Virus record (IMG/VR): IMGVR_UViG_2675903357_000009
Direction: 5' to 3' (one strand)
DNA: 10,089 nucleotides
Source of the DNA: a virus
Taxonomy: Duplodnaviria; Heunggongvirae; Uroviricota; Caudoviricetes
In this document: positions 8,853 to 9,644 of the stretch, piece by piece
How the letters are laid out: the number at the start of each line of letters is the position of its first letter
Position numbering within the stretch: position 1 is the first letter of the stretch
The notes under the pieces: model-generated
What the model was told of the DNA's origin: nothing
The model's database searches: none
What the model saw: only the letters and a program-made list of their open reading frames with translations
Translations under genes and position numbers: made by a program

Positions 8853-9008
8853 TTACTCCTCAGGTTCGTAAGCTGTGAAGACAGCGACCTCCGTCTGGCC
8901 GGTTCGAATTCGTACCTCGCAGAGGTCTTTCCTCGTTACCAGTGCCGTCACTATGACGGTTAAACAGATGACGATCAGGGCGATTAACATCGCCTTTTGC
9001 TGCTTCAT
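8853..9008 (-). CDS. hokD: Hok/Gef-family type I toxin (HokD/RelF-like, 51 aa)
   Basis: MKQQKAMLIALIVICLTVIVTALVTRKDLCEVRIRTGQTEVAVFTAYEPEE: transmembrane helix plus the conserved Hok C-terminal motif. ATG at 9008 with AAGGAG upstream. Confidence 0.85.
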   Translation of the reverse strand: MKQQKAMLIALIVICLTVIVTALVTRKDLCEVRIRTGQTEVAVFTAYEPEE

Positions 9009-9299
9009 AGCCTGCTTCTCCTTGCCTTTCGGCACGTAAGAGGCTAACCTAGATTTGCCGTTCATAGATTGAGCCTCAGATTAATGTTAAGCGTCTTGCC
9101 GGACGCGTAATGTTAACTGGGGCTTTTCTCTATCTGCCTTTTGGTGTTCATGCCTGAGACAGATAGCCTCAAGCACCCGCTGCAATTCTACTTAACTCTC
9201 CTTTTCCCGCAAACCGTTTTTATCCCCAGCGGCAAATCGAATACACCACCAGCGCCACCGCCATCGCAATTCCTACCGTTGTTAATGCTTCAGGCCAGG

Positions 9300-9644
9300 T
9301 CATCGTAAAATATCCTCCACGCTTATCAGTCCGTTCCGCTCCAGATAACTCATCGCCTTATCCGGTAATTTGCAGTCTGGCTTCGCTTTCCTCAGTTGCC
9401 AGGTTAACTGCTTTACCAGCATGGTTAACTCATCGACCAGACGCTGATATCCCACTGGTTTGTATTCATGCAATTTACCGGCTGGCTCTGCTGCCAGCGA
9501 TACCAGTGCGATTTCCAGAACAGCAATATCCATCTTATATGTGCGGATGATGTCATGGTCGATTGTGCCCGGTATGCACAGTCTCTGTGCTTCAATAGTC
9601 TCCTCTGCGTGAGCTATTAACTGCTCTCTGGTAAAAGTCGTCAT
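9300..9644 (-). CDS. Hypothetical phage protein (114 aa); N-terminal region paralogous to the upstream 55-aa ORF
   Basis: ATG at 9644 overlaps the upstream stop (ATGA). The stop overlaps a further 27-codon hydrophobic ORF. Confidence 0.6.

Follow-up and report, generated by a model that had tools for sequence, protein, structure and literature searches.

A complete hok/mok/sok toxin-antitoxin module of the hokD/hokW lineage is predicted in a lambdoid Escherichia coli prophage, with a separate 27-codon reading frame upstream

The 10,089-nucleotide (nt) stretch of the viral record IMGVR_UViG_2675903357_000009 in the IMG/VR database, referred to here as the window, contains a small toxin gene of the hok family, and we have analyzed the locus surrounding it by comparison with known hok/sok systems. 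The minus-strand interval 9213-8757 is very probably a type I toxin-antitoxin module, a complete hok/mok/sok set that belongs to the hokD/hokW lineage, with a 27-codon hydrophobic open reading frame (ORF) just upstream that is separate from it. In a lambdoid prophage of E. coli, the module forms an accessory cassette of the early region; it is an element of a standard, characterized kind, so that the finding itself is already known. The gene order is mini-ORF (the 27-codon frame), hok/sok, rem-like gene, DUF968, RusA and Q. The rem-like ORF, DUF968/HNH protein, RusA and Q antiterminator found 3′ of hok mark the point at which early genes give way to late ones in lambdoid prophages. An earlier, sequence-only reading of the window had drawn attention to this locus, and all of the features that it named are found at the coordinates it had given, all on the minus strand.

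The toxin gene is intact, and it encodes a 51-residue Hok identical to HokD of E. coli K-12. The protein matches Pfam PF01848 (HOK_GEF) with 81.6 bits against a cut-off of 22 (E = 3e-23) as well as PHROG 251, ‘MokW-like host killing’ (E = 7.7e-33), and the gene is followed, as the sequence-only reading had noted, by a strong terminator, a stem-loop at 8784-8767 with a run of T residues. That reading had also pointed to a GAGG site with an in-frame ATG at 9065, a start that would give a 70-residue product. The start codon is present (9065-9063, with a spacer of 8 nt to the GAGG) and opens a frame that spans the whole Hok sequence; its predicted translation product is Mok. Counterparts are the annotated mokW of the Stx2 phage 933W (213 nt, in frame with hokW) and the in-frame mokC of K-12, whose product, the annotated ‘regulatory protein MokC’, is HokC with an N-terminal extension, MokW being the same kind of product. 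The exact 70-residue Mok is to be found in public databases under the names ‘Hok family toxin’ or ‘regulatory protein’. As a separate observation, the codon for Tyr47 of Hok, UAC, forms with the following G a UACG motif (window 8867-8870); TadA-mediated A-to-I editing recodes Tyr to Cys in the hokC, hokD and hokE mRNAs, according to literature cited in a recent preprint (bioRxiv 10.1101/2025.08.07.668861).

The Rfam model RF01794 (‘sok’) has a full-length match at 9178-9003 on the hok strand with 112.4 bits, well above the gathering score of 59 (E = 1.5e-25), and this signal and the Pfam match are both far beyond chance. The model runs from GGGUGCUUGAGG to the hok AUG and therefore describes the leader of the hok mRNA, which the window holds in complete form. 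We placed the hok transcription start where the Rfam model begins, and the promoter calls rest on identity with 933W together with alignment to the annotated sokW and sokC. The hok promoter region differs at 1 nt from the one ahead of hokW in 933W, and the GTTAAGTAGAAT at this promoter is kept in most of 46 different upstream contexts.

Folding of the full-length mRNA (9178-8762) gives a predicted minimum free energy (MFE) of −168.9 kcal/mol (z = −6.5 relative to shuffled sequences), and in this predicted structure the molecule is closed by pairing of its 5′ tac element with its 3′ fbi element, a duplex of −24 kcal/mol. The tac sequence is identical in 933W and in K-12 hokC, and fbi is kept in K-12 hokD and 933W. 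Two further loci carry compensatory changes in the tac/fbi pairing: in K-12 hokB the U7-A pair becomes C-G and the G12-C pair becomes A-U, and in a Klebsiella plasmid hok the sequence GGCGC pairs with GCGCC. (This Klebsiella hok and K-12 hokB and hokC were compared in place of the sequence of plasmid R1.) No other block of the leader varies as little as the ucb box (entropy 0.07), the partner of tac in the Rfam consensus structure. A hairpin in the 3′ untranslated region (UTR) is presumed, from the R1 model (PMC9841398), to protect the 3′ end of the processed mRNA.

Whether a Sok-type antisense RNA lies within 9009-9300 was a question that the sequence-only reading had raised, and we predict that a convergent, cis-encoded Sok with its own promoter is present there, matching sokW, the promoter of which has been tested experimentally (PMC8621323). 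The Sok promoter is identical in 933W, and mutation of the sokW −10 element abolished antitoxin activity (PMC8621323). Sok is predicted to start at G9057 on the plus strand and to end at about 9127-9133, and its predicted structure has an unpaired 5′ tail followed by a long hairpin and a 3′ end rich in U (−33.2 kcal/mol, z = −5.0). It is complementary to nt 49-122 of the mRNA, a region that includes the mok Shine-Dalgarno (SD) sequence and start codon. The sequence-only reading had proposed alignment with characterized loci as a check for mok, tac/fbi and the Sok promoter, and all of these are accounted for in conventional terms (Table 1).

Table 1. Predicted features of the hok/mok/sok locus and of the ORF upstream of it (window coordinates; CDS, coding sequence; aa, amino acids)
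Feature	Coordinates	Strand	Details
27-codon hydrophobic ORF	9220..9303	-	ATGA overlap with the stop of the 114-aa gene (9644-9300)
hok/mok promoter	9185..9213	-	−35 TTGCGG 9212-9207, 16-nt spacer, −10 TAGAAT 9190-9185, inferred +1 G9178
Full-length mok-hok mRNA, about 417 nt	8762..9178	-	predicted fold, 5′ and 3′ ends paired
tac element GGGUGCUUGAGG	9167..9178	-	5′ end of mRNA, nt 1-12; pairs with fbi in MFE fold
ucb / anti-SD box AAGCCCC	9119..9125	-	pairs with mok SD region in full-length MFE fold
mok reading frame, 70 aa, in frame with hok	8853..9065	-	SD GAGG at 9077-9074
hok toxin CDS, 51 aa	8853..9008	-	SD AAGGAG at 9023-9018
GC-rich 9-bp hairpin in 3′ UTR, just 5′ of fbi	8824..8845	-	in full-length and 3′-shortened folds
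fbi element CCUCAAUGCACCC	8791..8803	-	pairs with tac in MFE fold
Intrinsic terminator, 7-bp stem (8784-8767), 4-nt loop, T run	8757..8784	-	terminator scan
Sok promoter	9022..9050	+	−35 TTGCCT 9022-9027, 17-nt spacer, −10 TAACCT 9045-9050
Sok antisense RNA, about 71-77 nt	9057..9130	+	ends by alignment to annotated sokW (933W) and sokC (K-12)
Hypervariable segment, mok codons 2-5 = Sok 5′ recognition tail	9047..9070	.	column entropy

Among known systems the closest relative is hokW/mokW/sokW (Stx2 phage 933W, Sakai prophage Sp5), with 93% DNA identity over 440 nt. The alignment of 933W to the window begins approximately 48 nt 5′ of the mRNA start and reaches the end of the fbi box. The promoters, leader, 70-residue in-frame mok, Sok hairpin and fbi are all shared, and the 933W record annotates mokW, hokW and the antisense sokW. 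The two loci differ in mok codons 2-5 and the Sok 5′ tail, and at 4 of the 51 Hok residues; the 933W locus also lacks the terminator of the window and is situated at the far end of the prophage map, not upstream of rem, DUF968, RusA and Q. The hokW-sokW locus is an experimentally proven toxin-antitoxin system in which Sok promoter mutations unleash toxicity; treatment with mitomycin C causes sokW to vanish and HokW to appear in a RecA-dependent manner, and phage release is halved in the absence of the locus (PMC8621323).

The hokD (relF) gene of the K-12 cryptic prophage Qin shares with the window not only its Hok but also the hok SD sequence, 3′ UTR, fbi and terminator, and has the downstream neighbors rem, ydfU/DUF968 and Q; it differs in that relB-relE replaces everything upstream of about −14. 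The hokC (gef)/mokC/sokC locus of K-12 has an in-frame mok (69 residues), an annotated sokC at the position homologous to the window Sok and an RF01794 match of 118 bits, but it occupies a chromosomal non-prophage site adjoining IS186, its sokC hairpin is without the 18-nt extension present in the window Sok, and its 3′ region yielded no duplex of the tac/fbi type. In the hok/sok (parB) system of plasmid R1, the paradigm for the mechanism, mok and hok occupy different reading frames. The R1 system is plasmid-borne and its role is in post-segregational killing, yet it resembles the window in having tac, fbi, ucb, a GAGG mok SD and a convergent Sok, along with a 70-codon mok that starts near nt 115 (PMC9841398). 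The R1 Hok is approximately 44% identical to HokW (PMC8621323).

On the model of the R1 and Sp5 systems, the full-length mRNA, closed by tac/fbi and with its mok SD masked by ucb, would be stable and translationally silent. Slow 3′ trimming would take off the terminator and fbi, and the trimmed mRNA would refold such that tac pairs with ucb and the mok SD becomes exposed. The short-lived Sok would pair by way of its 5′ tail over the mok start, blocking translation of mok and the coupled translation of hok, and the Sok/mRNA duplex would be destined for decay. Once the Sok supply ends, either through loss of the element or through prophage induction, Hok would be made and the inner membrane damaged. 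There is no terminator-like site between 9400 and the hok terminator, and early transcription of an induced phage would therefore read from the upstream phage genes into hok, where it could collide with Sok transcription. A scan of 8750-9320 gave no LexA site, so RecA dependence, if applicable here, would not be exerted via a local LexA box.

Several considerations weigh against the view that this copy operates as described. Its mechanism is assigned by homology with the R1 and Sp5 systems, its expression and toxicity are predictions, and the toxicity of Hok, its neutralization by Sok and the 3′ processing of the mRNA are known from homologs only (PMC8621323, PMC9841398); read-through and collision as a route to induction-dependent Hok, as for hokW, is plausible but is purely what we infer. 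A simple sigma-70 consensus scan flagged neither the hok nor the Sok promoter, the former having been passed over because its −35 element is weak. The MFE fold of the 3′-shortened mRNA yielded a metastable 5′ hairpin without a tac/ucb stem. Moreover, chromosomal hokA, hokB and hokC are reported, in the introduction of a recent survey (bioRxiv 10.1101/2025.08.07.668861), to be unable to mediate post-segregational killing.

The failure of earlier-tested chromosomal hok loci to give post-segregational killing, and the poor fit of the hok and Sok promoters to the sigma-70 consensus, could both be understood if the locus were an inactive relic similar to several chromosomal hok loci in K-12. We consider this very unlikely, however, as the locus contains no insertion sequence (IS) element, truncation, frameshift or premature stop, and every regulatory element is present and, in the full-length fold, pairs as expected. 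Its promoters are those of the functional hokW-sokW (PMC8621323), and the allele is a common one, with 100% identical Mok in 26 IMG/VR loci.

No relBE genes are present upstream of hok in the window, and the relB-relE-hokD arrangement of K-12 is not found there. The two upstream genes, of 114 residues (9644-9300) and 55 residues, are annotated as ‘hypothetical protein’ in near-identical RefSeq genomes, in agreement with the sequence-only reading. That reading was also correct in that relB and relE precede hokD in K-12, where the record shows relE-relB upstream, but its implication that a locus without relBE is unusual is not borne out. Homology between K-12 and the window is confined to the stretch from about 14 nt 5′ of the hok ATG through the terminator, with relE-relB further 5′, and K-12 hokD is without the hok promoter, tac, ucb, mok start, Sok target and Sok −10; no RF01794 match was obtained in the K-12 hokD region. 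Among 5426 complete E. coli genomes, the full 466-nt hok/sok locus is present at a coverage of at least 80% in 3920 (median of 2 matching places per genome, maximum of 9), compared with 1165 that contain the K-12 relE-hokD junction at the same coverage. These counts, together with the enrichment of hok in prophages described in a recent survey (bioRxiv 10.1101/2025.08.07.668861), show that the relBE-less state is the norm. The complete relBE-less form is also ancestral, and relB-relE-hokD of K-12 is a truncated derivative; PMC6379469, citing Ramisetty and Santhosh 2016, similarly describes an ancestral hokD frame of about 70 codons that was cut to 51 by relBE integration.

The K-12 layout is thus the exception, most E. 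coli genomes containing complete hok/mok/sok loci in lambdoid prophages, and the chief use of the analysis lies in this correction and in a point of annotation. RefSeq marks only the 51-residue hok CDS at the locus, so that someone relying on that annotation would see neither mok nor Sok nor the regulatory boxes. The sequence-only reading had allowed for the prospect of a standard, fully annotated hokD locus with no additional coding or regulatory potential. For hok this is essentially what we find, but mok and Sok are unannotated in RefSeq and the 27-codon ORF is probably a real and independent gene. That unannotated gene and a hypervariable Sok tail are by-products for the specialist, and neither alters understanding of the system.

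The 27-codon ORF is present as the sequence-only reading had described it, a hydrophobic frame on the minus strand overlapping the upstream stop in an ATGA motif. We predict that it is probably a genuine gene for a small single-pass membrane protein, the last of the upstream module, and that it is probably independent of the hok/sok module and not one of its components. Length alone provides no evidence, as 36 ORFs of at least 25 codons overlap the region 7500-10089, and support for the ORF comes from comparative data only. Loci were gathered in two ways, by the hok gene (84 sequences examined, with 80 loci from IMG/VR, four reference loci and the window) and by the 3′ end of the ORF (109 evaluable IMG/VR loci). 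The ORF is intact in 99 of the 109, and nearly all intact copies keep the ATGA overlap, with at least three unrelated upstream C-termini, including ...PLPEPPQEVNQ and ...IEQEVNR; SD-like sequences are present ahead of the ORF in all three upstream contexts. Across codons 2-19, third positions are variable at 17 of 18 codons and second positions at 7 of 18. The ratio of nonsynonymous to synonymous polymorphism (pN/pS) is 0.30 in frame, compared to 1.04 and 2.07 in the other two sense frames; the antisense frame that shares the wobble positions has a similar pN/pS, as expected, and no ORF of at least 25 codons is listed there. An allele from Shigella and E. coli with 73% DNA identity contains an intact 27 codons, with 8 synonymous changes and 9 conservative replacements, and keeps both the ATGA overlap and the hydrophobic character.

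These patterns bear on the possibility that the ORF is a chance open frame within conserved non-coding or regulatory DNA. Frames of this size are common by chance, the ORF is unannotated in RefSeq and in 933W, and family searches with the 27 residues gave sub-threshold matches only, to PHROG 4612 (E = 0.011) and DUF883_C (14.5 bits, compared with 27 needed). The excess of synonymous variant codons is also modest (20 of 50, against 27% expected, p = 0.03). Nevertheless, a chance frame would not readily account for the intact state of so many copies, the in-frame pN/pS when the other sense frames are at or above 1, the concentration of variation at third positions, the preservation of length, overlap and hydrophobicity in the 73%-identical allele, or the SD-like sequences in three contexts, and we regard this explanation as unlikely, if still deserving of some weight.

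A second alternative is that the ORF is a third component of hok/sok, such as a modulator or a further membrane peptide. It lies just 41 nt from the hok +1 in the window, the same ORF precedes hokW in 933W with the ATGA overlap in spite of a different upstream gene (the homology starting at the ribosome-binding site of the ORF), and hok is preceded elsewhere by other short hydrophobic frames (30, 34 and 59 residues). However, a hok leader follows at +41 in only 58 of the 109 loci. In 36 there is no hok leader within 520 nt of the ORF, and in the 34 of these hok-less loci with enough flanking sequence, unrelated sequence follows, often with terminator-like hairpins. Conversely, most prophage hok loci are without the ORF, which is in register upstream of hok in 22 of the 84 hok-chosen sequences, and it is absent at the K-12, mEp460 and plasmid loci. 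A role as a third component is therefore extremely unlikely, and we rejected the idea that the mini-ORF travels with hok in a mobile cassette, as approximately half of its copies are without hok.

The 27-residue peptide is named ‘prophage protein’ in some GenBank records, and a literature search with the peptide string found no paper describing it. When one genome per species was scanned with the back-translated peptide, true matches to the ORF were limited to Escherichia and Shigella, and seven other matches were attributable to chance. An E. coli-type mini-ORF and hok leader were also seen on a 1.8-kbp contig (L210) of a Segatella copri metagenome-assembled genome, which probably reflects contamination or mis-binning. 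Two further candidates were rejected: a clustering of the mini-ORF with DUF551 proteins is an artifact, those proteins being upstream neighbors without the peptide, and a 55-codon plus-strand ORF at 9141-9308 has a pN/pS of 1.6-2.0 in its frame. Just upstream of hok in other prophages (L040, L087, L069 and other IMG/VR loci) there are different, unrelated-looking hydrophobic ORFs, which include one of 30-34 residues ending in ...YCLAVVLMDRLSD, one of 34 residues, MSDDISLAMEGALAVVAVVGVYCLVVFLMDRLGN, and a two-helix ORF of 59 residues ending in ...MCIEYWR; some GenBank records list these small upstream ORFs as ‘membrane protein’ or ‘hypothetical protein’.

Within the hok leader, variation is concentrated in one block. 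Among 62 distinct prophage hok loci the entropy is 1.00 at mRNA nt 109-132 (9070-9047), compared with a low and even value of about 0.3 elsewhere, and there are at least ten discrete alleles at this block, such as MNGKSR, MLNTCR, MSHKCR, MLHKRR and MLYTRR, the window having MNGKSR where 933W and sokC have MLNTCR. The distribution is relevant to the question of whether the 70-residue product is a functional, N-terminally extended toxin and not merely a leader frame. The frame does hold the whole of Hok, unlike mok of R1, and the same is true of the annotated MokC and MokW. However, the hypervariability of mok codons 2-5 follows the RNA recognition tail and not protein constraint, and in R1 translation of mok as far as the hok start suffices (PMC9841398); we think it quite unlikely that the extended product acts as a toxin. 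The block may be a specificity determinant for co-resident hok/sok loci. The small single-pass membrane peptides that recur ahead of prophage hok/sok loci could be linked to Hok in function, as modulators of its action on the membrane or of the timing of lysis, or could mark an insertion site dedicated to cassettes of this kind, but we consider this very improbable. In a related possibility, diversification of the Sok tail would keep the hok/sok copies resident in one genome, up to 9-10 of them, from neutralizing one another.

Elsewhere in the window, the STnc100 small RNA family is represented twice, at 821-1010 and 3831-4020 (132 and 124 bits), as are tRNA clusters, at 1707-1959 (Arg-tct/Met-cat) and 4097-4346 (Arg-tct/Arg-tcg/Met-cat), and the window therefore contains two versions of the region downstream of Q. 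A truncated second copy of the Q antiterminator, of 133 residues, is also present, with 2097-2396 being 99% identical to 6020-6319 (regions 2062-2463 and 6018-6839), and it adjoins an IS3-family transposase ORF (rve domain, 272 residues; 2791-3609), which gives the prophage region a rearranged or composite look. A 72-nt sequence occurs as direct copies at 1-72 and 3581-3652 and as a perfect inverted copy at 10018-10089, at the end of the window, where it overlaps the start of a 76-codon ORF (9819-10049); these copies suggest either inversion or recombination between related prophage segments, or a problem of assembly. Finally, just past the hok terminator there is a promoter-like site on the minus strand (8715-8744; TTGAAG, 18-nt spacer, TAGAAT) that is positioned to drive the rem-like ORF at 8635-8351.

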